This document shows, in pieces, positions 1,568 through 31,050 of a DNA stretch of 64,000 nt. Positions within the stretch are counted from its first letter, which is position 1. Every line of letters starts with the position of its first letter. A program made the translations under genes and the position numbers. The notes under the pieces were generated by a model. The model was not told the DNA's origin and ran no database searches. It was given only the letters and a program-made list of their open reading frames with translations. The stretch comes from Patescibacteria group bacterium (GTDB lineage: Bacteria > Patescibacteriota > JAUYIX01 > JBHPHK01), in assembly GCA_042569365.1 (NCBI GenBank), contig JBHPHK010000004.1, forward strand, positions 6,113 to 70,112, in the 5' to 3' direction.

Positions 1568-3005
1568 CGGAACTTCTTATGTTTAGCATCCTACGAACGT
1601 CGCCCGGCGTGATCGCCCTCAAGACGAAAAGTAATCCGCCATATACGATGGCCGCGATCACAACAATCACAAATATATTCCAGTCGCGGACAAGCCAAAT
1701 CACTCCGCCCATGACTGCTGTCGCCACGATCACTGGCGCCCATATTTTTAATGGCGGCCAAGTCTTGAAATAGCGCCCCACTAATATAAATGCAACGACC
1801 GCTACCAAAGCCTCTACGCCCACCGTTGTTATCGCAGCTCCTGTATAACTATACAGTGGGATCGCGATAAAGTTGCTGACCAAGCTCAAGACTGCGCCCA
1901 CTCCAAATATCAAAGTCAAAGATTTAATCCTTTCGCCCGCCACAAAAGCTTGGCTAGCAAGATTTCCTACAAACATAAACGGAATCGACAAGATTATGAT
2001 CTGTAAAACAAATGCCGACTCGGCATACTCACCGCCCGCGATCACCTCGATAATTTTTGGTGCAGTCAAGATCACCCCCACCACTACCGGAACAGAAATT
2101 ATAAGTAATAGTTCAAAAGTTTTGCGAAATACTCGGCGGAAACGTTCACGATTACGATTGACGAAGTGGGTCAGCGTCCCCAGCACCAACCCTGTGATGA
2201 TTGCGGGGAATGCCACCAAAATATCCACCACCTTGAACGCCGCTCCATAAATACCAACATCCGCCTCCGGTTTAAACCAGGAAAGAATAATCGTATCAAA
2301 ATGAAAATAAATAATATTCAAAACGATGGCGGCGGCAAGCGGTACCGCAAGCTTCAGGATTCGCTTCCAAATGGTAAAGTCAAAAGCAAAACCAACTTTA
2401 ACATAACGCCGCGCAAATAAGATATTAATCAGCAAAGCTATCAAGTTTCCGGCCACCAAAACCCACATCACACTGAGCAGACCCGCCTGCAGATAAACCA
2501 CCAACACAACTCCTGCCAAAAAGATTATTCTTCCGACTACTTCAGAAAATGCCAGCTTCCAAGCCGTAAATTTATATTGAAAAATGGCGGCATAAAGACT
2601 CGTCTGCTGCAAAAATAAATAAGATAAGATGCCGACCCAGATACCGACCTTGACCACCAAAGGATAAGGAATAAACCAAGCAATCGCACCGCCGATCACA
2701 AAAAATCCTACCGTTAGTGTAAGACGCAGCGCGGTTACATTTCTAAACAGACGACTCTGTTCGATCTTACCGTCGGCAAACTCCCTGATCGTTATCGCGA
2801 ACAATCCAAAATCAGCCAAGATCGCAAAGAATCCTAGATAAGCCATGATCGTCGAATACTGACCAAAGGCATCGCGCCCCAAATAGCGCGTCAAGATCGC
2901 AAATGTTATCAGCCCGACTATCAGTCCCAGAATCTTCCCTACAAACTGATATACAGTATTTGAAGCGACTTTCGACGTTAAAGTTTTCTCTTGTTTATCT
3001 GGCAT
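1557..3005 (-). CDS. polysaccharide flippase (MOP/Wzx family)
   Basis: 482-aa ORF that is almost entirely hydrophobic helices (about 12-14 TM). Length and pattern are typical of Wzx/MurJ-like exporters, and it forms an operon with the GT. Confidence 0.8.
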   Translation of the reverse strand: MPDKQEKTLTSKVASNTVYQFVGKILGLIVGLITFAILTRYLGRDAFGQYSTIMAYLGFFAILADFGLFAITIREFADGKIEQSRLFRNVTALRLTLTVGFFVIGGAIAWFIPYPLVVKVGIWVGILSYLFLQQTSLYAAIFQYKFTAWKLAFSEVVGRIIFLAGVVLVVYLQAGLLSVMWVLVAGNLIALLINILFARRYVKVGFAFDFTIWKRILKLAVPLAAAIVLNIIYFHFDTIILSWFKPEADVGIYGAAFKVVDILVAFPAIITGLVLGTLTHFVNRNRERFRRVFRKTFELLLIISVPVVVGVILTAPKIIEVIAGGEYAESAFVLQIIILSIPFMFVGNLASQAFVAGERIKSLTLIFGVGAVLSLVSNFIAIPLYSYTGAAITTVGVEALVAVVAFILVGRYFKTWPPLKIWAPVIVATAVMGGVIWLVRDWNIFVIVVIAAIVYGGLLFVLRAITPGDVRRMLNIRSSDAG

Positions 3006-3023
3006 AACTAAAAACTCAGTGGT

Positions 3024-3052
3024 TTATTACGTTTTCTATTATACCTTGTCAA
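3024..3052 (-). promoter_or_regulatory. sigma70-type promoter for flippase operon
   Basis: The minus strand reads TTGACA-17 nt-TAATAA and ends about 18 nt upstream of the ATG at 3005. Confidence 0.5.
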
Positions 3053-3222
3053 GCCCAAATATCCATGCTGATTTATTAAATTAGTTGGGAACGATCATTT
3101 GTCTGCACCAAAAGCAACACATTGATGTTGATCGTGACATATCTACCCGGACGCAAATAAGTAGTCCTTTATTTAACGCCGAGCGCTAAAAACGCTCGGT
3201 TTCTATTACCCGCAAATCACCC

Positions 3223-3251
3223 TTGACAGGAATCAAAAGGTCTGATACAAT
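3223..3251 (+). promoter_or_regulatory. sigma70-type promoter (TTGACA-17-TACAAT)
   Basis: Exact -35 hexamer, 17-nt spacer and TACAAT -10. It faces a 70-nt three-hairpin leader and the 53-aa ORF. Confidence 0.55.
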
Positions 3252-3325
3252 GCGCGGATTTTAAATCCAGACCAGTTATTAATATTGGTTAATTTACTGG
3301 TCATAAGGCCTCTAAGGCCACTCCT

Positions 3326-5498: not shown

Positions 5499-5831
5499 TT
5501 AAGAAAAGGTTTGTGCGGTCTCCGCTTCTATCTTTTGCGTGTTATTTTTTGGTGGAACCTCATCAATCCCGCCGCCGCTCCAGGGATTACACCGCAGTAT
5601 GCGTGCTGTCCCTAAGATAAAACCACCGACAACCCCGTGCTTTAAGACGGATTGTCTGCAGTATTCTGAGCAGGTGGGATGATAACGACAATAACCTTTT
5701 GTGAAAAAATGCCTTACCCAGCTGTGATCTGGCGATATCGTAACCTGATATAGACGAATTAAATAAGCTAAAACAAGACTCGGCAATCCAAGCGCTTGTT
5801 TTATGAATGATTTAATTATGTTTGAGGCCAT
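5499..5831 (-). CDS. yidD: membrane protein insertion efficiency factor YidD
   Basis: It carries the hallmark CRYHPTCSEY...RCNPWSGGGIDEVP. Confidence 0.9.
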   Translation of the reverse strand: MASNIIKSFIKQALGLPSLVLAYLIRLYQVTISPDHSWVRHFFTKGYCRYHPTCSEYCRQSVLKHGVVGGFILGTARILRCNPWSGGGIDEVPPKNNTQKIEAETAQTFS

Positions 5832-6172
5832 ATTTTTGATCTTTTCAATAATGTGTAAATTTCTGCCTCAATCTCTTGATAGGTTTTCCCGGCAAAATCG
5901 CTGCGCACAACAATTATAAAGAGTAAGTTTGCCGGCAATTCATCAATTATGCTTTCTATAATAGAGCGGACCTGGCGTTTGATTCTATTCCTGTCCGTAG
6001 CTTTCTTCGCAACCTTTTTACTAACCACGATCGTGCCTCGGGGAGGGTATTCCACACCATCTTTTTCCCATGAAACATGAATTGTAGCATCCTTACTATG
6101 GAAACGGCGCCCTTCCTTGAATATACGGTCTATTTGGCGCTGTTTGCGTAATCTATTGTGACGTTTGAGCAT
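5816..6172 (-). CDS. rnpA: RNase P protein component
   Basis: 118 aa, basic, with the motif VSKKVAKKATDRNRIKRQVR. It lies directly downstream of rpmH. Confidence 0.85.
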   Translation of the reverse strand: MLKRHNRLRKQRQIDRIFKEGRRFHSKDATIHVSWEKDGVEYPPRGTIVVSKKVAKKATDRNRIKRQVRSIIESIIDELPANLLFIIVVRSDFAGKTYQEIEAEIYTLLKRSKIWPQT

Positions 6173-6222
6173 GTTGATAGGTTGAGGAAATCCTCCCTAT
6201 TTATCAACAGGAAGATAAAAAA

Positions 6223-6360
6223 TTAGACCGCTAATCGCTTACGGTTTTTTTGGCGGCGTTTTGATAATACACGACGACCTGTTGTTGAGCTGCTCCTCTT
6301 ACGAAAACCGTGAATTTTTGCTCGACGGCGCTTTCTGGGCTGATATGTACGTTTTGGCAT
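6223..6360 (-). CDS. rpmH: 50S ribosomal protein L34
   Basis: This ORF is not in the track (45 aa). The reverse strand translates to [45 protein letters not shown], a canonical L34 sequence. Confidence 0.9.
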
Positions 6361-6610
6361 TGTCTTATAACAAATTCAGTAAATCGGCTCTCATCTTAGC
6401 AAGGGATCGCCTTTCAGTCAAAGCATTTTTGAAAAATCAAATTTCTTGTTATTTTCAAACATTTACTTATCCAAAAAGTACTCCACAAAGTTTTCCACTG
6501 TTGAAAAATTATGACTATATCAAGCGAAATAACATGCACTACTTTTTTGTTTTCCACATGAGTGGTATACTGAATTTTGTTGATGTACTTATTTGATTAA
6601 TTTAAAGAGG
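6361..6610. promoter_or_regulatory. dnaA upstream region with DnaA-box-like 9-mers (origin half / dnaA autoregulation)
   Basis: The boxes are TTATCCAAA (6467..6475), TTTTCCACT (6491..6499) and TTTTCCACA (6550..6558), against the consensus TTATCCACA. The region is AT-rich and lies between divergent rpmH and dnaA. Confidence 0.5.
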
Positions 6611-8032
6611 ATGGATCCACAAAAGACTTGGCAAGCCACACTGGGCGAGCTTGAGCTTTCTATTAGTAAAGCAAACTTCACTACATGGTTTCGTAATACA
6701 TTTATCATGGAATGGAATGATGAAGAGGTAGTTATCGGTGTTCCAAATGCATTTACTAAAGAGTGGCTGGAAAATAAGTATCACAAAGAGATTTTTCGCT
6801 CTATTAATAGCGTCGTCAACGGAACAGTCCGCCGTGTCCGCTATGAAATAGGAAGCCTGCGCAACGCAGAGCAACATGCCAACGTTTTAGTTAGCGCCCA
6901 AGAGAATCAAATGGGTGATTCTTACAATTCTAGCGATTCAGAATCCTCTACAACCCAACCTTTTGGAAACGTCAGCATCGAAACTACCATGCCGGGCGTC
7001 GATCGCAACACCAACCTAAACCCACGCTTCACTTTTGACGATTATGTAGTCGGGCCAAGTAACGAGCTAGCTCAAGCAGCTGCTCAGTCAGTTTCATTGA
7101 GTCCCGGCACAACATATAATCCTTTATTTATGTACGGCGCCGTGGGGATCGGCAAGACTCATTTGATGCACGCCATTGGAAACGAAATCGTAAAAAATTT
7201 CCCGGAAAGAAATATTTTATACGTCACATCTGAAGCTTTCACAAATGATTTTGTCGAATCCGTCCGCAACAAAACAATGGCGAGCTTCAAAGAACGCTTC
7301 CGTAACCTCGACCTTTTGATAGTTGATGATATTCAGTTCCTCTCAACCAAAGAACAGACCCGCGAAGAGTTTTTCCATACTTTCAACGCTATTACTAGCC
7401 ATGGCGGTCAGATCGTCATCAGCTCTGACCAGCCACCTAAGTCTATTCCTACTATTGAAGATCGTCTCCGCTCTCGTTTTGAAGGCGGCATGATCGTTGA
7501 TATTGGCATTCCAGAGCTCGAAACTCGCCTAGCCATCTTAAATAAGAAGGTTGCTGAGTCAGAATTAGAGTTTCCTGATGATGTCTTAGAATACGTGGCC
7601 CAAAACGTGCGCCAGAGCGTCAGAGAGCTTGAAGGCGTTCTCAACCGCATTATCGCTACCAGCCAGCTTAAAGGCATCCCACCAGCACTAGAAGACGCGA
7701 AGAACGTCCTAGCAACCGTAGCAGCCAGTCCTAAGAAGCGCGCCATTTCTCCAAAACGTATCCTTGAGATCGTTTCACAATTTTATGACGTTGACGTTGA
7801 TGTTATTAAAGGCAAGTGCCGTAAAAAGGAAATTGTCCGCCCTCGTCAAATTTCAATGTATCTTATGCGTGAAGAATCGCACACAAGCTATCCAACAATT
7901 GGACAAGAGCTTGGCAATAAAGACCACACAACCGCCATGCACGCTGTAGATAAGATCACAAGAAATCTGGAAGAAGATGAAGAACTGCGCCAAGAAATTG
8001 ATTTGATTAGACAGCGCCTTTACCTTCCGTAA
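6611..8032 (+). CDS. dnaA: chromosomal replication initiator DnaA
   Basis: It has the Walker A motif GAVGIGKTHL, an AAA+ core and the C-terminal DNA-binding helix (HTTAMHAVDKI). The track ORF starts at a TTG at 6593, and I prefer ATG 6611 (MDPQKTW). Confidence 0.95.
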   Translation: MDPQKTWQATLGELELSISKANFTTWFRNTFIMEWNDEEVVIGVPNAFTKEWLENKYHKEIFRSINSVVNGTVRRVRYEIGSLRNAEQHANVLVSAQENQMGDSYNSSDSESSTTQPFGNVSIETTMPGVDRNTNLNPRFTFDDYVVGPSNELAQAAAQSVSLSPGTTYNPLFMYGAVGIGKTHLMHAIGNEIVKNFPERNILYVTSEAFTNDFVESVRNKTMASFKERFRNLDLLIVDDIQFLSTKEQTREEFFHTFNAITSHGGQIVISSDQPPKSIPTIEDRLRSRFEGGMIVDIGIPELETRLAILNKKVAESELEFPDDVLEYVAQNVRQSVRELEGVLNRIIATSQLKGIPPALEDAKNVLATVAASPKKRAISPKRILEIVSQFYDVDVDVIKGKCRKKEIVRPRQISMYLMREESHTSYPTIGQELGNKDHTTAMHAVDKITRNLEEDEELRQEIDLIRQRLYLP

Positions 8033-8326
8033 AATAAAAATAAAATAAAATAAAAATATTTTTGACTAACTTTAGTAGAGTGGATATCTACTGGATAGTT
8101 TATGAATAACAACTTGATATGTCTGGTGAGAAAGTGAATAAAAAATCACTCCCCTCTAAACCCTCTGACTTATACACCTCTCTCCACACAAACTATCACT
8201 AACTTCTTCATCTTCTATCCACCTCAATTATCAATCAGTTAAGTAAAAATACTTACCTTTACCCAGTTTCCACACTACTACAATTACTACCACTATATTT
8301 ATATAATATAATTTATTAATAATAGT
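8033..8326. promoter_or_regulatory. putative oriC (dnaA-dnaN intergenic)
   Basis: An A-tract/AT-rich run (AAAATAAAAATAAAATAAAATAAAAATATTTTT, 8033..8065) is a candidate unwinding element. It is followed by at least 5 DnaA-box-like sites: GTGGATAT 8080..8087, TCTCCACA 8181..8188, CTATCCACC 8215..8223, GTTTCCACA 8266..8274 and TGGATAG at about 8092. Confidence 0.6.
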
Positions 8327-9445
8327 ATGCGATTTGTTTGTACTCAAGAAAATCTAAACTCAGTATTAAATATTGTTGCGAGAGCAGTAACTAAAGATAA
8401 TACTTTACCAATTTTAGGAAATATTCTTATTAAAACAGAAGATGGTGGTTTAAGATTGGCCGCGACAAATCTCGAGATTGGTGTGAGAACTATTGTGAGA
8501 GGTCGTGTAGAAGAAGAGGGTGAGTTTACAGTACCTGCTAAATTATTGGTTGATTATGTTAATAATCTTCCGAAAGAGAGAATTACACTGCGTCAAAAGG
8601 AAAATACTCTCGAAATAGAAACTAAACAAAACACAGCCAAGCTTCAGGGCTCTGCAGCAGATGAATTTCCATTGATTCCAGTAGTGCAAGACAAAAAAGT
8701 AGCTGATGTTTTGATAAGCGACTTAAAAATCAGTCTCCAACAAACAGTTTTCGCAGCTGCACAGGATACATCACGTCCTGAAATCGCAGGTCTCTATATT
8801 GGCTTTGAAGATAACCAACTTAGAATTGCAGGTACGGACAGTTTTCGTTTGGCAGAAAAGATTATGTCGGCAAAAAATGTCGCTACAGACGAGTCGCCGA
8901 TTATTTTACCAACCAGAGCCGCACAAGAACTTTCTCGTATCTTAGACAGCAGCACAGAGCGCGAGGAGACAGTTGCAATTTACTTATCACAAAACCAAAT
9001 TCTCTTTAAATTCGGCGATATTGAATTCACTTCTCGTTTGGTAGAAGGAAAATTCCCGGATTACCAACAAATTATTCCACAAGAGTTCAATACAGATGCC
9101 GTTGTGGACCAGGATACTCTCACGCGCGCCTTAAAAACAACAGGCTTGTTTGCGCGTACCGGATCCAATCAACTCAATCTCACTTTCGATGGAGAGCACA
9201 AAAAATTGCAGTTAGCAGCGCGTGCAGATCAGTTGGGAGAAAACCAGGCAGAGGTTCCAGCGAAAGTAACAGGACGAACAGAGACAATTGTCCTTAATTA
9301 TCAATATCTTTTGGATGGACTAGCGGCAGTATCTGCTCAAGAGGTAACTTTGAAAATAAACGACACCCAAAATCCGATAATGTTGAAATCACACGGCACA
9401 GGCAAGGGAGGATTCCTCTATCTTATAATGCCGATAAAAGCATAG
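8327..9445 (+). CDS. dnaN: DNA polymerase III beta sliding clamp
   Basis: 372 aa. Both the N-terminus (MRFVCTQENLNSVLNIVARAV) and the overall pattern are typical of DnaN, and it follows dnaA. Confidence 0.95.
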   Translation: MRFVCTQENLNSVLNIVARAVTKDNTLPILGNILIKTEDGGLRLAATNLEIGVRTIVRGRVEEEGEFTVPAKLLVDYVNNLPKERITLRQKENTLEIETKQNTAKLQGSAADEFPLIPVVQDKKVADVLISDLKISLQQTVFAAAQDTSRPEIAGLYIGFEDNQLRIAGTDSFRLAEKIMSAKNVATDESPIILPTRAAQELSRILDSSTEREETVAIYLSQNQILFKFGDIEFTSRLVEGKFPDYQQIIPQEFNTDAVVDQDTLTRALKTTGLFARTGSNQLNLTFDGEHKKLQLAARADQLGENQAEVPAKVTGRTETIVLNYQYLLDGLAAVSAQEVTLKINDTQNPIMLKSHGTGKGGFLYLIMPIKA

Positions 9446-9512
9446 ACATTTCTTCAAAAACGTGTAATATCTAGATGCGGGGGCAGATGGGCTAGCTGAC
9501 TCTTTTTTATCA

Positions 9513-10661
9513 ATGCGAATCGTAAACCTACAACTAGATAGTTACCGTAACTACGATAAAATCAACCTTACTTTAAATAAGGGGGTTAATATTTTCCGTG
9601 GTTCGAATGCAAGCGGCAAAACGAATCTTTTAGAGGCGATTAGCCTTTTTGTTTTGGGGGGATCGTTCCGAGCACAAGATTTATTTTTAATAAAATATGA
9701 AGAGCCAGCCGCACACGTGTCTCTCAAAATAAAATCTGACCAGGAAAACAAATTAAAGGTAAGTTTGGGAACGACCGACAAGGGCTTAAAGAAAGTTTGG
9801 AAGAAAAATGATATGGGCTCTCAGTTTAGTTATTTGCGCAAGGATCTTCTCGGCGTTCTGTTCTTGCCGACCGACACAGAGTTCGTAACTGGTTCGCCAC
9901 AGATCAGGCGCCAATTTTTCAACCGCGTTTTGTCGCAGATCGATCGCGACTATGCACAAACCCTTTTTCAATATAATAAAACTCTCAGGCAACGAATCTT
10001 TTCTTTGAAAAGAGTGCGTCAAAAATATTCTTTCGAAAATGAGCTTGATACGTGGGACGAAACGCTAGTCAAATATGCCGTGCCTTTGTATCAGGCGCGC
10101 GAAGCACTGGTAAAAAAACTTAATCGTTATTTATCTGAGATTTATAGCGATGTTATTCGGGGAAAGGCGGAGTTGAAGATCGATTATAAGGCATCACCGG
10201 ATGGGATTTTGCTCGAGGATGATCTGGGTCTGCGCCTTTCTGATCAGCTGATCGCTTCGCGCGAACGAGATCTTTCGCGAGTGCGTACGCACAACGGTCC
10301 TCACAGAGACGACTGGCAGTTTATGCTTAATGGAAACCCTCTGAGCGAAACCGGATCGCGCGGAGAGCAGCGCAGTGCAATTATCGCGATGAGGGTTGCC
10401 GAGGCGCGCGTCATTGAAGAAGTATCTAAGCACAGGCCGGTTCTTTTGCTGGATGATGTTCTGTCAGAACTAGATCAGCAGCGCCGCGAGACGTTACTTG
10501 AGATCGTTAAGGAATACCAGACGATTATTACGACTACTGATGTTGATTTTCTAGCCAACCATTTAGACATACTCAGCGATGTTAAGCTGTTTGAGGTTTC
10601 ACAAGGTAAAGTAAAATCAATCAAGCTTGATGATGCAAAAGCTTTATATTTTTCAAACTAA
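9513..10661 (+). CDS. recF: DNA replication/repair protein RecF
   Basis: It has the Walker A motif GSNASGKTNLLEA and the signature/Walker B region (LLLDDVLSELD). It follows the dnaA-dnaN-recF synteny. Confidence 0.9.
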   Translation: MRIVNLQLDSYRNYDKINLTLNKGVNIFRGSNASGKTNLLEAISLFVLGGSFRAQDLFLIKYEEPAAHVSLKIKSDQENKLKVSLGTTDKGLKKVWKKNDMGSQFSYLRKDLLGVLFLPTDTEFVTGSPQIRRQFFNRVLSQIDRDYAQTLFQYNKTLRQRIFSLKRVRQKYSFENELDTWDETLVKYAVPLYQAREALVKKLNRYLSEIYSDVIRGKAELKIDYKASPDGILLEDDLGLRLSDQLIASRERDLSRVRTHNGPHRDDWQFMLNGNPLSETGSRGEQRSAIIAMRVAEARVIEEVSKHRPVLLLDDVLSELDQQRRETLLEIVKEYQTIITTTDVDFLANHLDILSDVKLFEVSQGKVKSIKLDDAKALYFSN

Positions 10662-15989: not shown

Positions 15990-16502
15990 ATGAGCACGAA
16001 ACGTCCAAATATTATTCTCGGGATTGATCCGGGCATCGAACGGACAGGATTTGGAATAATCGAGTCAGCCGGAAAAAATATCAAACTGATCGACCAGGGG
16101 TGTATCACTACCAGCAGTAAAGATACGGCAGCACAGCGCTTGCTCGATATCGAAGAAGATCTCCAAGAATTATTAGCTCAGCATAAGCCCAATACATTGG
16201 CTATCGAAAAATTGTTCTTCGCAAAAAATGTAACATCAGCATTGGCAGTCGGTCAGGCACGCGGCGTTATCTTGCTGACGTGCGCTAAGGCAGGGCTAAG
16301 CATTTTTGAATACAATCCTATGCAAGTCAAAGTCGCGGTGACCGGATACGGGGGAGCGGACAAAGAACAGATGGAAAAAATGGTGCAAAAGTTGATGAAC
16401 TTAGACTTCGTACCAGCTCCCGATGATGTAAATGATGCGCTCGCACTCGCAATCTGTCACGCGCATAACCAGTCGTTCATTGAAGCGGCTGCCAAAAAAT
16501 AA
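15990..16502 (+). CDS. ruvC: Holliday junction resolvase RuvC
   Basis: It has the patterns ILGIDPGIERTGFGII and DDVNDALALAICH. It forms the typical yebC-ruvC pair. Confidence 0.9.
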   Translation: MSTKRPNIILGIDPGIERTGFGIIESAGKNIKLIDQGCITTSSKDTAAQRLLDIEEDLQELLAQHKPNTLAIEKLFFAKNVTSALAVGQARGVILLTCAKAGLSIFEYNPMQVKVAVTGYGGADKEQMEKMVQKLMNLDFVPAPDDVNDALALAICHAHNQSFIEAAAKK

Positions 16503-16512
16503 TATCTCTAAA

Positions 16513-18027
16513 ATGAAAAATCCAAATAAATATATCATTCCAATATTACTATCAGCTCTGATTTTGTTTGGGGTTGGTTTACAAGGAGTAGGTGCTCAAG
16601 AGCTAGAAGCTGAACAACAGCTCGAGATTGTTAATCTTTCTGGTACTGATGCATTAATTAATGAAGCAGTCAGCTTTACTGTGCCTAGCGCAGATGACGA
16701 AGATCAGGTCATCTGGAATTTTGGCGACGACACTGTCGTGACGGGCAAGACTGTCGAAAAGACATATTCTGAAACAGGGGTCTATGATATAAGCGTGAGC
16801 GTTATTGCGAGCGATGGCACCTTAGAGGTCGGTACGCTGGCAGTTTCAGTTTTCTCTGAATACATTGTTGCGCTTATCGACAGAAGCGTCATGGCCGAAG
16901 AAATTAAAACGCTAGCGACGACTGCCGCCGAGCATAATATCTATTTAAAGACTTTGAGAGCAGATGAGCTCCAGACTCTATACCAACGGGAAAGGTCGTT
17001 GACGGACTTGTTAGTAAATACAGCGCCTGTCTTGAGTCAGGCTAAGTTGCTGATTGACTGGACCCAGGGTACGGTTGGCTTAGCGTCTTTGCTGGCAGCA
17101 CAACAAGCGCCCAATGCTGTTCCCCTAGATCTGAGCAATCAAATTATCATAAGCGTCACGAAGACAATATCTTTCGACAAGCGTATCGCTCAACTTACAT
17201 ACGACGTTATCAATCCGGTTGGTTTAGTGTTAACAGAAAAGGAGACACTGCCAGTCTTGGTGGCTAGCGAATCGCTTAGAGATGTTACAGAAAATCTTCA
17301 GCAGACCGGTACTAATTTCGAAATCATTCAACAAACATCACCGCCTTTGTCAGAGCGCGTAAGTATCGTCAATTTCTTTTTTCCCGGCGTAGAATTTGTT
17401 GCTAAGCGAGGATTGCCACTGAATACGCTTGTCATCTTTCTTGCGCTTCCTTTGATCGCATTATTCTTTATCATCGGCAAACAAGTTATCGGCCTGCGCA
17501 CCTTTGGTTTGTATATTCCTGTTCTTTTGACGGTAGCTTTATTGCCACTCGGGCTTGTGACCGGCCTCGTTGTGTTTCTTGGATCACTCTTTATTACAGA
17601 ATTGATTCGACCGTCGTTTAGATGGATGCGTTTATCTTTCTTACCGCGGTCTGCGATCATGGTAACGGCAATCACACTTCTGTTTCTTGGATTTTTTGTA
17701 GTGGCTGGCACGCTTGACTACATACATCTCCTGCCATACGCAATTTTCCCTGCGCTTCTGTCTATTCCTCTGATTGAGAAGTTTGCTTCAGTACGAATCG
17801 AGAAGAGTCGCTCGGCAGCTATTCGATATACATTGGAAACGATGTTGATGGTCGTTATTAGTTTCGTCGTTATCAATTTACCGGTGATAAATACGCTGAT
17901 TATCAGTTACCCTGAGACGATTATCATTGTGGCTTTGCTTGCTTTCTTGGTAGGGCGCTTTACAGGCTTAAGAATAGTGGAATATTATCGTTTCCAAGAT
18001 CTAATTCGCGCATTGCGTCGCGACTAA
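16513..18027 (+). CDS. signal peptide + PKD domain + central domain + C-terminal ~7-TM module protein
   Basis: My preferred start is MKNPNKYIIPILLSALILFGV, a signal-like sequence. The PKD motif WNFGDDTVVTGKTVEKTYSETGVYDISVSV is present. The last 200 aa are multi-pass hydrophobic, like the 7TM module that accompanies RimK-type ATP-grasp genes. Confidence 0.7.
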   Translation: MKNPNKYIIPILLSALILFGVGLQGVGAQELEAEQQLEIVNLSGTDALINEAVSFTVPSADDEDQVIWNFGDDTVVTGKTVEKTYSETGVYDISVSVIASDGTLEVGTLAVSVFSEYIVALIDRSVMAEEIKTLATTAAEHNIYLKTLRADELQTLYQRERSLTDLLVNTAPVLSQAKLLIDWTQGTVGLASLLAAQQAPNAVPLDLSNQIIISVTKTISFDKRIAQLTYDVINPVGLVLTEKETLPVLVASESLRDVTENLQQTGTNFEIIQQTSPPLSERVSIVNFFFPGVEFVAKRGLPLNTLVIFLALPLIALFFIIGKQVIGLRTFGLYIPVLLTVALLPLGLVTGLVVFLGSLFITELIRPSFRWMRLSFLPRSAIMVTAITLLFLGFFVVAGTLDYIHLLPYAIFPALLSIPLIEKFASVRIEKSRSAAIRYTLETMLMVVISFVVINLPVINTLIISYPETIIIVALLAFLVGRFTGLRIVEYYRFQDLIRALRRD

Positions 18028-18031
18028 ATTA

Positions 18032-19519
18032 ATGCCTAGCATCAATACAGAAATTTTAGGGATGAATGCCAGAAATTCAGTTTATCTAAGACCGAATAAT
18101 TTGAGGAGCGCAGTAAGATTGGCAGACAACAAACTGGAAACTAAAAGAATCTTACGTCGCTACGGCATGCCAACTCCAAACTTGTTGGCGGTTATCCCAA
18201 CTGCTCGTGAGTTAGATGAGTTTGACTGGGCACAGATGCCAAGTAGTTTTGTGATCAAGCCTAACGGAGGGCTAGGTGGAGAGGGCATTATTATTTTGAA
18301 AAAGAAATACAGTCCCAAAAAAGAAAAGGAATCGGGATTAGGCAATGTATTCGGATTAGTGCGTGAAGAAAGCGATGAACCAGCTTGGGTTGGGTCAGAT
18401 GGTCGTATTTGGACCGCATCGAAACTGAAAGTGCATGTAGCCAACATATTGAGTGGTAATTTTTCGATCGCTGGTACTTCAGATATTGCCTTAATAGAGC
18501 AAAGAATCAAGCTTGACCCTATCTTTAAGCCGATTACTCCGAGTGGAATTCCTGATATTCGTGTAATTGTTTTTAATAGAGTGCCAGTGATGGCAATGCT
18601 CCGGTTGCCAACAAAACGATCTAATGGAAAGGCAAACTTAGCGTTGGGAGCAATCGGTGTTGGAATCGATCTGGCAACGGGGATGGCCACAAGTTCATAT
18701 GTTAAAAAGCCACGACGCCAAATCATTGAACGTCATCCAGACACGAATGAACCCCTATCTAATATAAGAATTCCATACTGGACTACGATTTTAAAAATGA
18801 GCATAGAATGTCAGGTGGCAAGTCGACTAGGATTTTTGGGCGTGGATTTAGCATTGGATAAAAATTACGGGCCAATGGTTGTTGAGCTGAATGCAAGACC
18901 CGGCTTAGAAATTCAATCTGTTAATCAAGCATCTCTGCGCCGGCGTTTACGCCGTCTATATGGACTAAAAGTTCGTACAATTAATAAAGGAGTAAAGGTT
19001 GCCAAGGAATTGTTTGGCGGCGATACCGAGACAACTGAAGAGGACAGACCTGTATTAGGAATTATCGAACCAGTAGAAGTATATCAACACAAAAGCAGTA
19101 AACGAGAAAAGATTTTGGCAAAAATAGACACAGGTGCGACATACACTTCTATCGATCGCGATGTTGCGGCGCGACTTGGATACAAAGGCGTCATTTCTGC
19201 CTTTAGAAAATACGGACTCGATAAAACTATGACCAGAACCAAGGCGCGCAGAAGTTATCAGCGTTTCCGAAAAGAGATTTTGCAGAAATACTCGAAAGAA
19301 ATCGTGGATACGCGCATTATTCACTCCAGTCACGGTACGACTTATCGCATTTTGATTCCTCTAAGGTTCATGCTGTCTAATGAATTAGTCGAAACGAATG
19401 CCACGGTCATGGTCCGCAAGCATTTGCGCTATCCTATCATTATCGGCCAGCGAGATTTGAAGAAATATATCGTCGATCCGTCCAAACGACGCCATCATAT
19501 TAAAACTTTCTCACGCTAA
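18032..19519 (+). CDS. ATP-grasp (RimK/alpha-L-glutamate-ligase-like) fused to a retropepsin-like C-terminal domain
   Basis: The N-terminal 330 aa have an ATP-grasp pattern (FVIKPNGGLGGEGIIIL, DIRVIVFNRVPVMAMLRLP, VVELNARPGLEI). The C-terminal domain has the aspartic-protease-like motif AKIDTGATYTSID. It begins 5 nt after the 7TM gene. Confidence 0.75.
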   Translation: MPSINTEILGMNARNSVYLRPNNLRSAVRLADNKLETKRILRRYGMPTPNLLAVIPTARELDEFDWAQMPSSFVIKPNGGLGGEGIIILKKKYSPKKEKESGLGNVFGLVREESDEPAWVGSDGRIWTASKLKVHVANILSGNFSIAGTSDIALIEQRIKLDPIFKPITPSGIPDIRVIVFNRVPVMAMLRLPTKRSNGKANLALGAIGVGIDLATGMATSSYVKKPRRQIIERHPDTNEPLSNIRIPYWTTILKMSIECQVASRLGFLGVDLALDKNYGPMVVELNARPGLEIQSVNQASLRRRLRRLYGLKVRTINKGVKVAKELFGGDTETTEEDRPVLGIIEPVEVYQHKSSKREKILAKIDTGATYTSIDRDVAARLGYKGVISAFRKYGLDKTMTRTKARRSYQRFRKEILQKYSKEIVDTRIIHSSHGTTYRILIPLRFMLSNELVETNATVMVRKHLRYPIIIGQRDLKKYIVDPSKRRHHIKTFSR

Positions 19520-26341: not shown

Positions 26342-27955
26342 TTATTCAGTTGAACCTTCGCGCTTCTCGCGCCGTCTCAGTCCGACGTAGCTGATCGCCG
26401 CAGTCAACGCAAGGCTTATTAAAATTGAGAACAGTAGAGTTGTAGATCCGGCCTGGAGAAGCGAATCTCCAATACCTCCGCCAGTCTCTGTAGAAATATC
26501 TGCATTGCTACGGGGGAGAATACGATAACCGCTGCTGGTTTGGCTGACGACGCCGGTGATCATAAAGAAGTCGCCTTTTTGTTTGTCGGGCAAGTCGATT
26601 TCCGTGTCCGGATCAACATATATCTTCACAGCTCCTGTGTCATCGTCGAGGTAAAAAGTAGAACCGCTCGTTTCCGTAATATTTCCTTGGACGCGCACTA
26701 ATTTGCCCTCGTAATCTTCATCTGTATCTCCAGTTTTAATATCTGTGGGCGTGATGGGCAGATTTGAGCTTAAAAATTCAATGTCAGATAGGTCAGAAAT
26801 TTTTAGCCGTGTTTCACCTTGGGTGGAGCTTAAAGTTCCTTTGATTTTCAACTTATCGCCTAATGAAAAGTCACTGACAGACAAAGTGCCGACATAAATT
26901 TGCATTCCGCCTGTAGAATCTTCGACGTAAAAATATTTCTCACTTAAAACTCCGGGCTTGACCGTAACAATTGCTTCAACTAAGGCTTCTGCATCAGGAT
27001 CTAGCGTGCGTGCTTCTGCAATGGTCAAGACTTCGTCTGTTGGATCGGGATCAACGGGATCAGTTGGGTCTACAGGATCAATCGGATCGTCTGTAACTAC
27101 GACAGTAGCAACTTCAGAATTTTCAGACTGAGCTCCGTGGGAATCAGTTAATGTTATGCTGACGGTATATTCTCCAGGTGTATCATAAATATATTCTCCG
27201 GACATCTCTGTACTCACTCCTCCATCGCCGAAATTCCAAGCAGCCGTGAAAGAATCGTTTTCTGGATCGGTTGAGATCGCGGCATTATAGGTAGCCGTAA
27301 GAGGCGCTTCGCCTTCATCTGGCGTAATTATCGCTGTGATCTGCGGTGCATCGTTATTATCAATACCAGGACTGGAGCCAAAGGCGTTGGCGCTCTGTGA
27401 CCAATTCATAGGCTCGTTAGTGAGTTCGGGAGAGTTCTTCTCCCAGGAAATTCCTTCGCCTGCGTCACCGGACCAGTCAAAGACGTCAATAATATTTCCA
27501 GTGAAGTCTGTGAGTGTTAAAGTGTCGCCGCTGTTTCCGAGTCCGTTGCCAATACTGGTATCGGCGTAGACTTTGATCATAATAGTTGTGGCGGGATCTG
27601 CATTGGCGGTCAGAAAATCGTTATATTCTCCGGCATACTCCGGGTCAACGATAATAGCACGCGCACCCGGCTCCAAAACTGTCCCTGCTTTGCCCCAGTC
27701 ATAGAGGGTCGTATAGTCTTCGAAAACATCGTTATTATCGGCCGGGTCACCCAGCATCCAGCGCCAGAGATCGATCTCAGAGTCGCCAAGATTGATAAGT
27801 TCGACAAATTCGCCCGTGTCTTCATCGAGCGGGTTGGCCATAACTTCTGTGATACGGATTTGTGATAATACTTCAGCTCGGACAGGACTGATATTAACTG
27901 CAAAACTCGTAAATACAAACGTTAAAATAGAAAAGAGGGCAATAGATTTTTTCAT
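26342..27955 (-). CDS. surface protein: signal peptide + lamin-tail domain + PKD + two OB-like domains + C-terminal TM anchor
   Basis: My preferred start is ATG 27955 (MKKSIALFSILTFVFTSFAVNISPVRA). It has the LTD motif RITEVMANPLDEDTGEFVELINLG and a PKD motif (WNFGDGG). The C-terminus is LLFSILISLALTAAISYVGLRRREKRE. The 91 upstream codons of the track ORF run through a terminator and a mini-ORF. Confidence 0.75.
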   Translation of the reverse strand: MKKSIALFSILTFVFTSFAVNISPVRAEVLSQIRITEVMANPLDEDTGEFVELINLGDSEIDLWRWMLGDPADNNDVFEDYTTLYDWGKAGTVLEPGARAIIVDPEYAGEYNDFLTANADPATTIMIKVYADTSIGNGLGNSGDTLTLTDFTGNIIDVFDWSGDAGEGISWEKNSPELTNEPMNWSQSANAFGSSPGIDNNDAPQITAIITPDEGEAPLTATYNAAISTDPENDSFTAAWNFGDGGVSTEMSGEYIYDTPGEYTVSITLTDSHGAQSENSEVATVVVTDDPIDPVDPTDPVDPDPTDEVLTIAEARTLDPDAEALVEAIVTVKPGVLSEKYFYVEDSTGGMQIYVGTLSVSDFSLGDKLKIKGTLSSTQGETRLKISDLSDIEFLSSNLPITPTDIKTGDTDEDYEGKLVRVQGNITETSGSTFYLDDDTGAVKIYVDPDTEIDLPDKQKGDFFMITGVVSQTSSGYRILPRSNADISTETGGGIGDSLLQAGSTTLLFSILISLALTAAISYVGLRRREKREGSTE

Positions 27956-28044
27956 AAACGATAGATTAGATAAATTAATTTTCTCCAATCTAACACGGCG
28001 CGCATTAAGAAAATCTAAAAAAACAATTAAACTATTTTCACAAA

Positions 28045-28092
28045 ATAAAAAAAGGCTCCCCCTGGAGAAGAAAGGTAGAAAAGAGGGGGAGC
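28045..28092 (-). terminator. rho-independent terminator closing the mini-ORF pair
   Basis: The minus strand reads GGCTCCCCCT-(20-nt loop)-AGGGGGAGCC followed by TTTTTTTATTTT. Confidence 0.7.
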
Positions 28093-28149
28093 CAAGGAGA
28101 AGAAAGGTTATGATGGCCTGCATCTTCTCTGAATGCGCCGAGTGTGGTC

Positions 28150-28221
28150 TTAGTCGGTGACGCAGTCCTTGGAAATAACGGCACCGAAACATCGCGTGCC
28201 TGTACAGCCGAAGTGTCGCAT
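28150..28221 (-). CDS. mini-ORF, 23 aa, MRHFGCTGTRCFGAVISKDCVTD
   Basis: It is preceded by ACAAGGAAGG about 7 nt before the ATG. Its SD context and first 9 nt (ATGCGACAC) are shared with the upstream mini-ORF. It contains three Cys and is below the track cutoff. Confidence 0.45.
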   Translation of the reverse strand: MRHFGCTGTRCFGAVISKDCVTD

Positions 28222-28287
28222 AGAACACCTTCCTTGTTGAGGTTAACAGAATTGGTGGCCAGTCTTCGTTTCAAAGAAGCAGACGAG

Positions 28288-28395
28288 CTAGCCGCCGCCA
28301 GTGGAGGCGCCGAAGAGTATTCCGGTCGTTTCGGAGGTTTTGTTGCCAGCGGCGGTGTCTCTCATACCGCCGGCACAGCCGCCAAGGTGTCGCAT
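28288..28395 (-). CDS. mini-ORF, 35 aa, MRHLGGCAGGMRDTAAGNKTSETTGILFGASTGGG
   Basis: It is preceded by ACAAGGAGAA 6 nt before the ATG. It shares the motif TSE[TN]TGIL with the 47-aa ORF at 28929..29072. Confidence 0.5.
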   Translation of the reverse strand: MRHLGGCAGGMRDTAAGNKTSETTGILFGASTGGG

Positions 28396-28524
28396 AATAG
28401 TTCTCCTTGTAATGGTTTATTTTAAGGCTTAATAAGCCTGTTATTTGTAAGCTGCAATCCATTTATATTATAACCTCTGAAAATAGCAAAAACAAGCAAG
28501 GCGTATTATTTAGGTTTCACAATG

Positions 28525-28669
28525 AAAAAGCGCCCTCCCGGAGTGGTCACAAGGGGAGGGCGCGAAGTGATCTAATCCGGGAAAATTCCCGGAAAAGTGG
28601 GGGCATTACCATGTATGTGGCATTCGAGGGTGCCGCATACTTAGGTTAACGATCTCGAGGCAATCGTTA
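28525..28669 (-). ncRNA. candidate small RNA (~145 nt) or leader, class unknown
   Basis: A promoter lies directly upstream. Four hairpins can be drawn: AACGAT..ATCGTT, GTATGCGGCA..TGCCACATAC, CCGGGA..TCCCGG and GCGCCCTCCC..GGGAGGGCGC+TTTTT. The loops and linkers are C-rich (CCUCGA, CCCUCGA, GCCCCCA). No sensible ORF is present. Confidence 0.5.
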
Positions 28670-28675
28670 CTCAAT

Positions 28676-28704
28676 ATACTAGGTGCAATAGAAGTTTTTG
28701 TCAA
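28676..28704 (-). promoter_or_regulatory. sigma70-type promoter (TTGACA-17-TAGTAT)
   Basis: The minus strand has an exact -35 at 28699..28704 and a -10 at 28676..28681. Confidence 0.5.
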
Positions 28705-28711
28705 GAGTTTT

Positions 28712-28754
28712 AAGGTAAAAGAAATAGAGCGCTCCCTAGAAGGAAGCGCTCTAT
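28712..28754 (-). terminator. rho-independent terminator after the 47-aa/14-aa mini-ORF unit
   Basis: The minus strand reads ATAGAGCGCTTCC-TTCT-AGGGAGCGCTCTAT followed by TTCTTTT. Confidence 0.6.
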
Positions 28755-28801: not shown

Positions 28802-28846
28802 TTAGACGAACCCTGACTCGTATCTCTGCAAATCAGAAACCGTCAT
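28802..28846 (-). CDS. mini-ORF, 14 aa, MTVSDLQRYESGFV
   Basis: A perfect AAGGAGGAA lies 6 nt upstream of the ATG. The ORF sits 82 nt after the 47-aa ORF and just before the terminator. Confidence 0.35.
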   Translation of the reverse strand: MTVSDLQRYESGFV

Positions 28847-28928
28847 AGGGTGTTCCTCCTTGCGGATGTGCCGTCACGGCTGGATTTTTCTTTGTCAGGT
28901 TTGCGACAACTTGCTGTGGACTCAGCTC

Positions 28929-29072
28929 TTAGTTACCGCTTACCGCGTCGAGAAAGGCTTTGTTCCGGCAGTCCTCATTCGCGAGAATGCCAGTGTTTTC
29001 GCTTGTGTGCGCGTTCACCGCGACTTTCTTCTTGTTTTCGCTGGTGTCAGGGTCTTTATTATGGAGGTTCAT
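28929..29072 (-). CDS. mini-ORF, 47 aa, MNLHNKDPDTSENKKKVAVNAHTSENTGILANEDCRNKAFLDAVSGN
   Basis: This is an internal ATG of the 71-aa track ORF, preceded by AAGAGG 9 nt upstream. It is hydrophilic and shares TSENTGIL with the 35-aa mini-ORF. Confidence 0.5.
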   Translation of the reverse strand: MNLHNKDPDTSENKKKVAVNAHTSENTGILANEDCRNKAFLDAVSGN

Positions 29073-29170: not shown

Positions 29171-29199
29171 AATATACTTTTCCCAGCGCGTTTTGTCAA
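29171..29199 (-). promoter_or_regulatory. sigma70-type promoter (TTGACA-17-TATATT)
   Basis: The minus strand has exact hexamers and lies about 90 nt upstream of the 47-aa ORF. Confidence 0.55.
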
Positions 29200-29269: not shown

Positions 29270-29707
29270 CTAGTCATCATAGTCCAAGTGCTGAAGTTTC
29301 AGATTAACTTCGCAGAGCCGAGCGGGAATTTCCGTGGCCCAGAAGCCTAATTGTAAGAAACAAATCGGAATGGGCCAGATCAGCCACAAAAGCAGTTTGA
29401 CGATCTTGGTGAGCGTCCGTTGCTGGTTGCAGAAAAGGTAAGAGAGAGTCAAGACCAGCATGAGCAGATGCGGGAAATAGTAGACGCCGACTTCGTTTAA
29501 GGAAAACTGGAAAATAATCCAGGGCGCTACCGTGTACAAGAAGGTGTCAGAGAGATTCAAAGGCTGAGTGTCAACGATTGTGAAGAACAGGGAAAGCATA
29601 AAAAATATGCACACGGCCGCAATCGTCACGCGTCCCGCATTGCCAGGACCGCCTTCCAGATCTTTAAGGCTGTTCAGCCATCTGATCAGCGAGAAAGTTC
29701 TTTTCAT
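29270..29707 (-). CDS. small polytopic membrane protein (145 aa, ~4 TM), hypothetical
   Basis: TAGGAGGCACCCAAA precedes the ATG. Four hydrophobic helices are visible, and I recognise no family motif. Confidence 0.65.
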   Translation of the reverse strand: MKRTFSLIRWLNSLKDLEGGPGNAGRVTIAAVCIFFMLSLFFTIVDTQPLNLSDTFLYTVAPWIIFQFSLNEVGVYYFPHLLMLVLTLSYLFCNQQRTLTKIVKLLLWLIWPIPICFLQLGFWATEIPARLCEVNLKLQHLDYDD

Positions 29708-29844: not shown

Positions 29845-31050
29845 CTAAGCCTTCTTCTTCCTCAAATCAAAACTAATATTCTTGCTTGCTTCTACCTGAG
29901 GCTGATCAAAAGGATTAACTCCGCGCATCCAGCCAGAGTACACCGCAGCATACTGCAGGAAGCCCATCAGTTCGCCGACATTCTCTTCATCCAGCTTTGT
30001 TATCGAAGTCGTGATGACTGGAATCCCGATATTGATCGCATCCTCATAAGTACCACGGTATTCATACTCCATAACCTTCGAGAGAGGAATGTCATCCAAA
30101 TCCGCGAGCGTCCCATCACGCAGAGGAATGTCACCGATCTCTTCCGGAATATATGTTGCGTGATCATGGAAAAAAGTCTCCGGACGAATAAACCAACCGA
30201 CCACGTTCTTGCCTCCACCAAAGAAACGCTGGTTGGTGTGGTGCTGAGACTGCGGGCCTTCGGCGCCGTACATAGTTTGGCCGCCGCCCTCTTTACTGAC
30301 GGATTCATGGAAAAGCTGGACGATCAATTCTGAAATACCGGCTAGTTCATGTGAATAGATTGGGAAAAATATTTCACTGAAACCTTTTTTCTCCAACTGA
30401 TAGAAAGCGGCTGCCACTTGTAGGGCAGGATTTTTTTCCAGCGGAACGGAAGGCGCGCACTTAGCATGCATGCTCTTAAAACCGGCATGGAGTTTGTCGA
30501 TATCAATCTCGAGCAAAGCAGTTGGGAGGAGGGCAGCCTCTGTGCCACCGATAAAACGACCGCCAATGTCCGGGTGCATGAAAGTCTTCCATTTGAGGCG
30601 ATCGGCTATTTCTCGCAGAGCTCCGTTGGGACCTGTGATCGCCGCAATCTTATATTTATGTCGTGAAAAGAATAGTGTGTTTTCGAGTTGTTCGACGTTG
30701 GTACCGGATTTGCTGATCGTTACCACGACAGAATTATCTGCCGGAGCAAAGCGCATCAGGTGTTCCAGATAGTTTGGATCAGACGTGTTGCAGATGAAAA
30801 CTTTGTGTTTGGATTGATGCCAGCCCAGGGCCTCGTAGATCGCCTTGTAGCTGGTGATCGAGCCACCGCGGCCGACGACAATAATGTTGCGGGCATTGCA
30901 ACAGGTCTTCACAGATTCCTTGATTCCTTCCAAGTCCGCTTCGTATTGTGCGAAAGCGGGAACTTTTTGTTTGGCAATAGAGGCGAGCTCTTTTTTAAGC
31001 CCTGCGCCGATGTCTTTGATAGTTGTGTGTTGTAGGTCGTTTTTAAGCAT
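29845..31050 (-). CDS. pgi: glucose-6-phosphate isomerase (short SIS-type PGI)
   Basis: 401 aa with PGI-type motifs (IVVGRGGSITSYKAI, VVTISKSGTNVEQ, GGRFIGGTEAALLP, NPFDQPQVEASK). Confidence 0.8.
   Translation of the reverse strand: MLKNDLQHTTIKDIGAGLKKELASIAKQKVPAFAQYEADLEGIKESVKTCCNARNIIVVGRGGSITSYKAIYEALGWHQSKHKVFICNTSDPNYLEHLMRFAPADNSVVVTISKSGTNVEQLENTLFFSRHKYKIAAITGPNGALREIADRLKWKTFMHPDIGGRFIGGTEAALLPTALLEIDIDKLHAGFKSMHAKCAPSVPLEKNPALQVAAAFYQLEKKGFSEIFFPIYSHELAGISELIVQLFHESVSKEGGGQTMYGAEGPQSQHHTNQRFFGGGKNVVGWFIRPETFFHDHATYIPEEIGDIPLRDGTLADLDDIPLSKVMEYEYRGTYEDAINIGIPVITTSITKLDEENVGELMGFLQYAAVYSGWMRGVNPFDQPQVEASKNISFDLRKKKA

Follow-up and report, generated by a model that had tools for sequence, protein, structure and literature searches.

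Two short open reading frames on the minus strand of the window, i.e. the whole 64-kb stretch of DNA analysed here, are probably cistrons of a mini-operon within a lineage-specific, rapidly evolving and modular micro-protein family (9–65 aa). Paralogy, modularity and purifying selection at the protein level are established for this family, as is its linkage, at each of the three loci, to paralogous orphan membrane proteins. The two frames, ORF-B and ORF-C, had been singled out in a preliminary description for their shared N-terminus and initiation context, and both are present as described there. They sit in a 1.3-kb minus-strand stretch without long ORFs, with the following elements:

28395..28288, minus strand: ORF-B, 35 aa (MRHLGGCAGGMRDTAAGNKTSETTGILFGASTGGG), SD AAGGAG at 28408..28403
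28221..28150, minus strand: ORF-C, 23 aa (MRHFGCTGTRCFGAVISKDCVTD), SD AAGGAAGG at 28235..28228
28467..28495, minus strand: promoter-like element of the B-C mini-operon, -35 TTGTTT, 17 nt, -10 TATAAT at 28472..28467
28222..28287, minus strand: B-C intercistronic spacer (GCTTCTTTGAA…AATTCTGTTAACC…AACAAGGAAGGTGT), containing the ORF-C SD
28047..28093, minus strand: intrinsic terminator of the B-C unit (GGCTCCCCCT…AGGGGGAGCC plus a T-run), arms 28093..28084 and 28063..28054

Both SDs are canonical and lie 7–8 nt from the ATG. There are two copies of the combined module ACAAGGA-N7-10-ATGCGACAC in the 64-kb window, compared with none in any of 100 dinucleotide shuffles. The 15-mer ATGCGACACYTYGGC alone has two exact matches, and at least two matches were found in 5 of 100 shuffles when two mismatches were allowed; by itself, the 15-mer is less decisive. 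The promoter-like element was read by eye and falls below the consensus-scan threshold, its -35 TTGTTT being weak. With this element and the terminator, ORF-B and ORF-C would form one small mini-operon, separately promoted and terminated.

The lineage is barely sampled. The PGI encoded in the window is 100% identical to NCBI ACFL1U_01380, annotated as 'Patescibacteria group bacterium', and a GTDB species scan of contigs with PGI gave one irrelevant 28% match only. In a 5.8e9-protein database, the PGI and the LTD protein encoded downstream of the array have one close relative each (83% and 74% identity), both on the same 14-kb Logan contig, L002. As this is the single close relative, the comparisons span two genomes. 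Five further ORFs with the start module or clear homology are found on L002:

11653..11835 of L002: 60-aa ORF at the positionally orthologous locus, MHYFGGAGDG…KKTVENTGILCGGCAGGVQKDVETGP, with the start module and TxE[NT]TGIL as in ORF-B
10772..10897 of L002: extra ORF with the TxE[NT]TGIL motif (…STIETTGILH…)
1106-2400 of L002: additional locus, in the order paralogous membrane protein, 65-aa ORF, spacer, 9-aa ORF, terminator, 42-aa ORF, second terminator
Additional locus of L002: 65-aa ORF, MRNLGCVGSTRHFGASGTPKSKDCVTDFRPGSGGGGVKLGDNTETISVLDEVGLDLRVGASTGGG
Additional locus of L002: 9-aa ORF, MRNFGAVIS
Additional locus of L002: 42-aa ORF, MRYSDCASSKDCVTDFRPKPKEETEIVLENTGILLGASAGGG

On L002, the ATGCGA/SD module always leads into an open frame (65, 9, 42 and 60 aa), so that the refuting case named in the preliminary description, a module in relatives with no open frame behind it, does not occur. 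There too, a long ORF is followed by a homologous spacer and then by a short ORF, in this case of 9 aa. Aligned with the spacer that separates the 65-aa from the 9-aa ORF, the B-C spacer reaches a local score of 45 compared with a null maximum of 26 over 1000 shuffles, which marks the two as homologous. The -10 TATAAT and the surroundings of ORF-B align with the region 5′ of the 60-aa ORF (local alignment p~0.004), and the B-C terminator is kept 5′ of the LTD gene of L002, while the two terminators of the additional locus are identical to each other. In the window, the RuvB–Yip1 junction is syntenic but lacks the additional locus. The window locus is thus a mosaic, with flanks orthologous to locus 2 of L002 (the positional one) and a cassette that most closely resembles locus 1.

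In the more distant contigs L004 and L005 (synteny queA-PGI-x-LTD-glgA), the family is absent and unrelated sequence occupies this position. L002 carries three consecutive genes without a Pfam match (238, 276 and 278 aa; 7080..9862) between the PGI and membrane-protein genes, and another unknown gene (260 aa; 2471..3253) beside the additional small-ORF locus. None of these inserted genes is found in the window, and therefore the small-ORF loci sit in insertion/deletion hot spots.

Alignment of nine family members revealed a mosaic of conserved modules whose presence varies by member, namely I, MR[HNY]xGC..TRxFGA; II, SKDCVTDFRP; III, GGGVKLG; IV, TxE[NT]TGIL; and V, GAS[TA]GGG-COOH or a ..KDVxTGx tail. 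ORF-B consists of a short module I together with IV and V, and ORF-C of modules I and II. ORF-C is a truncated paralogue rather than a 'diversified core', because over its whole length it is 74% identical to residues 1-27 of the 65-aa ORF and its stop lies directly after SKDCVTD. The tail of ORF-B (TSETTGILFGASTGGG-stop / ETTGILFGASTGGG-stop) is common to the 42-aa (ENTGILLGASAGGG-stop) and 65-aa (VGASTGGG-stop) ORFs, and the codons of the GAS[TA]GGG tail differ among members (Ser TCC/AGC/AGT, Gly GGC/GGT). Between the two units of the window, similarity past the first ~30 coding bases is no better than in shuffles, and a module V remnant 3′ of the ORF-C stop was not significant (p~0.2). The earlier statement that the two ORFs diverge completely after ~8 codons thus holds for the window copies compared with each other, but it is misleading since each half is conserved in L002 paralogues. 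The same observation speaks against a common leader with a diversified core as proposed there, since what follows codon 8 is not hypervariable but made up of conserved modules (SKDCVTDFRP, TxE[NT]TGIL, GAS[TA]GGG).

Substitutions between paralogues are mostly synonymous, which indicates coding genes and not an RNA repeat. The following statistics come from few, short and partly non-independent paralogue pairs of one related genome fragment. In SKDCVTDFRP, the 42-aa and 65-aa ORFs differ by 7 synonymous and 0 non-synonymous changes (p 3.8e-5). ORF-C and the 9-aa ORF differ by 5 synonymous changes and 1 non-synonymous change (p 0.004), i.e. 5 differences at 6.7 synonymous sites and 1 change at 20 non-synonymous sites. 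For ORF-C and the N-terminus of the 65-aa ORF, pN/pS is 0.45. Pooled B-type blocks give a pN/pS of 0.31, with 13/12/35 differences by codon position (p 5.6e-6). In a six-frame test, this sense value of 0.31, which is biased downward because the aligned blocks were selected on amino-acid similarity, was the lowest, followed by the wobble-sharing antisense frame (0.44) and the other four frames (1.3–1.8). Since the antisense value is close and the sequences are few, the strand assignment rests mainly on the orientation of SD/ATG, promoter and terminator. All family members start with an ATG that has a suitably spaced SD, and the indels that distinguish them preserve the reading frame; together with the synonymous excess, these are the generic features of protein-coding small ORFs. 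Combined with the module count (two in the window, none in 100 shuffles) and the L002 homologues, the substitution pattern bears out that both ORFs are paralogues of a translated small-ORF family.

A 93-aa antisense ORF (28144..28425, plus strand) was considered separately and rejected; it lacks an SD, its frame is not that of the L002 antisense ORFs, and at L002 locus 2 it is interrupted.

The recurrent long/short arrangement, and synonymous sites that are nearly saturated while almost no non-synonymous change is seen (in 9–23 codons), suggest that the short peptides, ORF-C and the 9-aa ORF, are still constrained. Modules may be gained and lost through tandem duplication, through deletions that keep the frame and through the exchange of cassettes from one locus to another, and ORF-C would then be a shortened paralogue which remains under constraint and continues to be translated. 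The SD/ATGCGACAC start common to both ORFs would represent inherited paralogy, i.e. a strong translation-initiation region plus an N-terminal module, rather than a RiPP leader.

Further elements lie upstream of the B-C unit in the window array:

28929..29072, minus strand: ORF-A, 47 aa (MNLHNKDPDTSENKKKVAVNAHTSENTGILANEDCRNKAFLDAVSGN), a more distant family member with the TxENTGIL module (…HTSENTGILA…)
29171..29199, minus strand: strong sigma-70-like promoter, TTGACA-17-TATATT, 11/12, predicted to drive ORF-A and the 14-aa ORF
28802..28846, minus strand: 14-aa ORF (MTVSDLQRYESGFV) with a strong SD AAGGAGG, then a terminator at 28754..28724
28525..28704, minus strand: non-coding RNA candidate between the A and B units, ~150 nt, promoter TTGACA-17-TAGTAT at 28704..28676, terminator at 28563..28530

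An 18-nt stretch of ORF-A (GAAAACACTGGCATTCTC) is identical in the L002 60-aa ORF, and the 5′UTR motif TCGAACATTA of the ORF-A transcript is common to both L002 loci. The positional orthologue of ORF-A on L002 (10980..11123) likewise has 47 codons without an indel, while its middle part is ~50% diverged; the overall pN/pS of this pair is 0.86, i.e. without purifying selection. The 14-aa ORF, which reads MLVSDLQRYESGFV on L002, differs there by 6 synonymous and 2 non-synonymous changes (pN/pS 0.09), suggesting a conserved translated micro-peptide that would be co-transcribed with ORF-A. Its back-translated sequence had no matches in the JGI metagenomes scanned.

The 3′ half of the non-coding RNA candidate (CGGGAATTTTCCCGGATTAGATCACTT / CGGGAAUUUUCCCGGAUUAGAUCACUU plus a strong terminator) is nearly identical on L002, and the candidate has no Rfam match. 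Its single-stranded segment GAUUAGAUCACUU is complementary at 11 of 13 positions to the LTD mRNA leader (27976..27964, just 5′ of the start codon), a pairing that is kept on L002 via G-U wobbles. Within the candidate, an extra ATGCGGCAC start (MRH…) opens a 10-codon frame at 28606..28638 on the minus strand, with no SD and with the ATG changed to ACG on L002; this frame may be a decayed copy of the family start module. In addition, two 12-nt segments in 28862..28913, 3′ of ORF-A, are each complementary at 11 of 12 positions to the ORF-B start region 28371..28394 (CAAGTTGTCGCA/TGCGACACCTTG and CGGCACATCCGC/GCGGCTGTGCCG). This complementarity is not kept on L002 and is probably due to chance.

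Directly 5′ of the small-ORF array, the window encodes a small membrane protein:

29270..29707, minus strand: 145-aa membrane protein, predicted to be all-helical

This protein shares 45% identity with the product of L002 10116..10568 and 29% with that of L002 1106..1492, so that paralogous membrane proteins of 128-150 aa, predicted to be helical, precede all three arrays (the window and both L002 loci). Among 1.84e9 representatives, it matched only itself and the L002 orthologue, and it received no family assignment from Pfam or NCBIfam. The AlphaFold single-sequence model is helical, with a pLDDT of 54 that is too poor for a fold search. The membrane protein seems to evolve fast, because its orthologues are 45% identical compared with 74–83% for the neighbouring genes. 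By analogy, the association of array and membrane protein would resemble peptide/immunity or peptide/processing pairs.

Downstream of the array lies the gene of a secreted LTD-PKD-OB-fold protein, whose true start is the ATG at 27955 and which has a signal-peptide-like N-terminus; its own conserved region lies 3′ of the terminator. The flanking housekeeping genes include queA, PGI, glgA, RuvB and ClpB, with the dnaA/dnaN origin region ~20 kb away. There, at ~5800..9500 of the window, rnpA-yidD-yidC-jag lie on the minus strand, followed by dnaA and dnaN on the plus strand, and the cumulative GC-skew reaches its minimum at ~8-10 kb; therefore, the chromosomal replication origin is placed within the window. 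The proteins most similar to the window PGI (29845..31050, minus strand) come, at ~47%, from DPANN archaea (Woesearchaeota, Nanoarchaeota), while L004 (6336..7349) and L005 (5817..6812) carry a different PGI of the bact-PGI_C/SIS type at the same syntenic position. This looks like an in-place non-orthologous gene displacement by horizontal transfer. At 16432..19519 on the plus strand, 9–12 kb from the array, a PKD-7TM_transglut protein is followed by an ATPgrasp_ST domain fused to a Zn_protease-like domain, a pair predicted to form a peptide-ligase system. On L005, the LTD gene has homologues of the PKD-7TM_transglut and ATPgrasp_ST genes and a MATCAP protein as immediate neighbours, without small-ORF peptides.

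The family is new to all databases searched and is known from two genomes only. On the relevant strand, Rfam gave no match at the gathering threshold or at E≤10, and the family peptides had no match in NCBIfam at E≤10 or in Pfam at E≤0.1-1. A profile search with five family peptides against the 5.8e9-protein database (E≤10) returned nothing, which is a weak result as such short ORFs are probably absent from that database. Seven matches to SKDCVTDF in a metagenome scan were all attributed to chance, lying in unrelated frames or proteins, and viral scans for the family were negative. Two specific readings were also rejected: a lasso peptide (Thr at -2, Gly1), since most members lack Asp/Glu at core position 7-9, and a lipobox in L-G-G-C, since there is no signal peptide.

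The preliminary description had implied precursor peptides. In such a RiPP-type scheme, the short conserved N-terminus would serve as a leader (alternatively, the core would be N-terminal and the follower C-terminal), it would be recognised by a maturation enzyme encoded elsewhere in the genome, and the Cys/Gly-rich parts would be modified, with azoles, thioethers or an adduct on the C-terminal GGG as examples. The multi-copy small ORFs with their common N-terminus and Cys/Gly-rich stretches (GGCAGG, GGCGGG, CGGCAGG) agree with this, the conserved short motifs could serve as recognition sequences, and the ATPgrasp_ST-Zn_protease fusion and PKD-7TM_transglut protein are encoded 9–12 kb away, albeit on the other strand. 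However, a Pfam search of ~50 ORFs in the 64 kb found no YcaO, LanB/C/M, radical-SAM, RRE, lasso, C39-ABC or other maturation or export gene, nor does one lie beside the L002 loci, so that the precursor implication finds neither a maturation enzyme nor a peptidase-transporter or known precursor family in the window. No peptide matched a Pfam or NCBIfam precursor model, the regions past the N-terminus are conserved modules instead of hypervariable cores, and members of 9 and 23 aa are too short to hold leader and core together. Precursors of this type are unlikely here. Somewhat less unlikely, though still doubtful, is that ORF-B-type frames are functional while ORF-C and the 9-aa ORF are dying, functionless remnants of a tandem duplication whose start module has not yet eroded. 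ORF-C indeed lacks modules III-V, its L002 counterpart has only 9 codons and is fused to the terminator, the positional orthologue on L002 is a single 60-aa ORF, and copy number differs between the two genomes. This reading is weakened by the ORF-C/9-aa comparison, where synonymous sites are near saturation (5 at 6.7) and only 1 of 20 non-synonymous sites is changed, albeit in a small sample of 9–23 codons; by the SD and ATG kept in both copies; and by the pN/pS of 0.45 between ORF-C and the 65-aa N-terminus.

It is very unlikely that the SD/ATGCGACAC repeat is a cis-regulatory RNA or that the short ORFs encode regulatory leader or arrest peptides whose translation, and not whose product, controls termination 5′ of the LTD surface-protein gene. 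At both loci, the short ORF is the final cistron before an intrinsic terminator, and in copies 1-3 base pairing is possible between the purine-rich SD and codons 3-5 (CYUYGG). On the other hand, Rfam remained without a match on this strand even at E≤10, the six initiation regions have no common fold (z-scores -2.4 to +1.2), and the stop-to-terminator distance varies from ~55 nt in the window to ~12 nt on L002. Furthermore, past the terminator the LTD gene is preceded by a conserved region of its own, and conservation runs through the long ORFs at the amino-acid and not the nucleotide level. The lack of an Rfam match, the inconsistent folds of the six copies and the coding substitution pattern speak against a regulatory RNA repeat, which the preliminary description had named as a refuting case.

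For the favoured reading, that of a modular micro-protein family, the functional link between peptides and membrane protein rests on their adjacency in three related loci. The peptides might act with the membrane protein as a peptide-plus-immunity pair, as an export/receptor pair or as small membrane-protein partners, with a role in conflict or host interaction, which would fit the fast turnover of both peptides and membrane protein; we regard this as possible but tentative. A more far-reaching and improbable version is that the arrays are a new peptide system of episymbiotic Patescibacteria, in which micro-proteins are processed, exported or sensed by a co-duplicated AgrB-like or immunity-like membrane protein. 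The membrane partner would then be one without detectable homology to known AgrB-like or immunity-like proteins, some of the peptides would have 9–23 aa with the N-terminal Cys module only, and cassette exchange between loci would diversify the repertoire for interaction with hosts or competitors. The tiny genomes of Patescibacteria (CPR) abound in unassigned genes, and ORFs of less than ~30 codons are passed over by gene callers. The locus provides sequence-level evidence for protein-level selection on ORFs of 9, 14, 23 and 35 codons. Should the link between peptides and membrane protein be functional, it would point to a system of peptide signalling or antagonism not yet described in episymbiotic bacteria; otherwise, the locus documents well how lineage-specific micro-proteins arise, duplicate and become truncated.

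Compared with known systems, the array is reminiscent of the prochlorosin and NHLP-Nif11 lanthipeptide precursors, which are multi-copy RiPP families with a conserved leader and a variable core. Both have several small paralogous ORFs per genome, a common N-terminus and initiation region, and quick evolution. However, the conserved N-terminal part spans only ~6-15 aa here and is followed by conserved modules, and the 64 kb contain no maturation enzyme or transporter and no model match. Among Gly/Cys-rich microcins, microcin B17 is a TOMM, and class IIb microcins have a Gly/Ser-rich C-terminal tail and a small membrane immunity protein. The present peptides are likewise small and Gly-rich, with GGC/CGG motifs and a conserved Gly/Ser/Ala tail (GAS[TA]GGG), and a small multi-pass membrane protein adjoins their array. 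Unlike the microcins, with which they share no sequence homology, they come from a Patescibacterium and lack a double-glycine leader, McbBCD/YcaO, Mch-type enzymes, an ABC exporter and a hydrophobic segment; the double-glycine-leader consensus is absent from all family sequences, and no ABC transporter or C39 peptidase is encoded in the window.

Leaderless and class II bacteriocin-plus-immunity loci offer another comparison. As in these, the small genes stand in tandem, carry strong SDs and have promoters and terminators of their own; they are linked to a small membrane protein that evolves fast, and close relatives differ in copy number. In contrast, the peptides described here are hydrophilic, probably disordered and neither amphipathic nor cationic, and the membrane gene is upstream and separately terminated, with no transporter found. 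With respect to lineage-specific smORF families from metagenomes, the present family differs in being modular, arrayed, known from only two genomes and as short as 9-14 codons; like them, its members have ≤65 aa, are missed by gene callers and are recognised only via conservation and the RBS.
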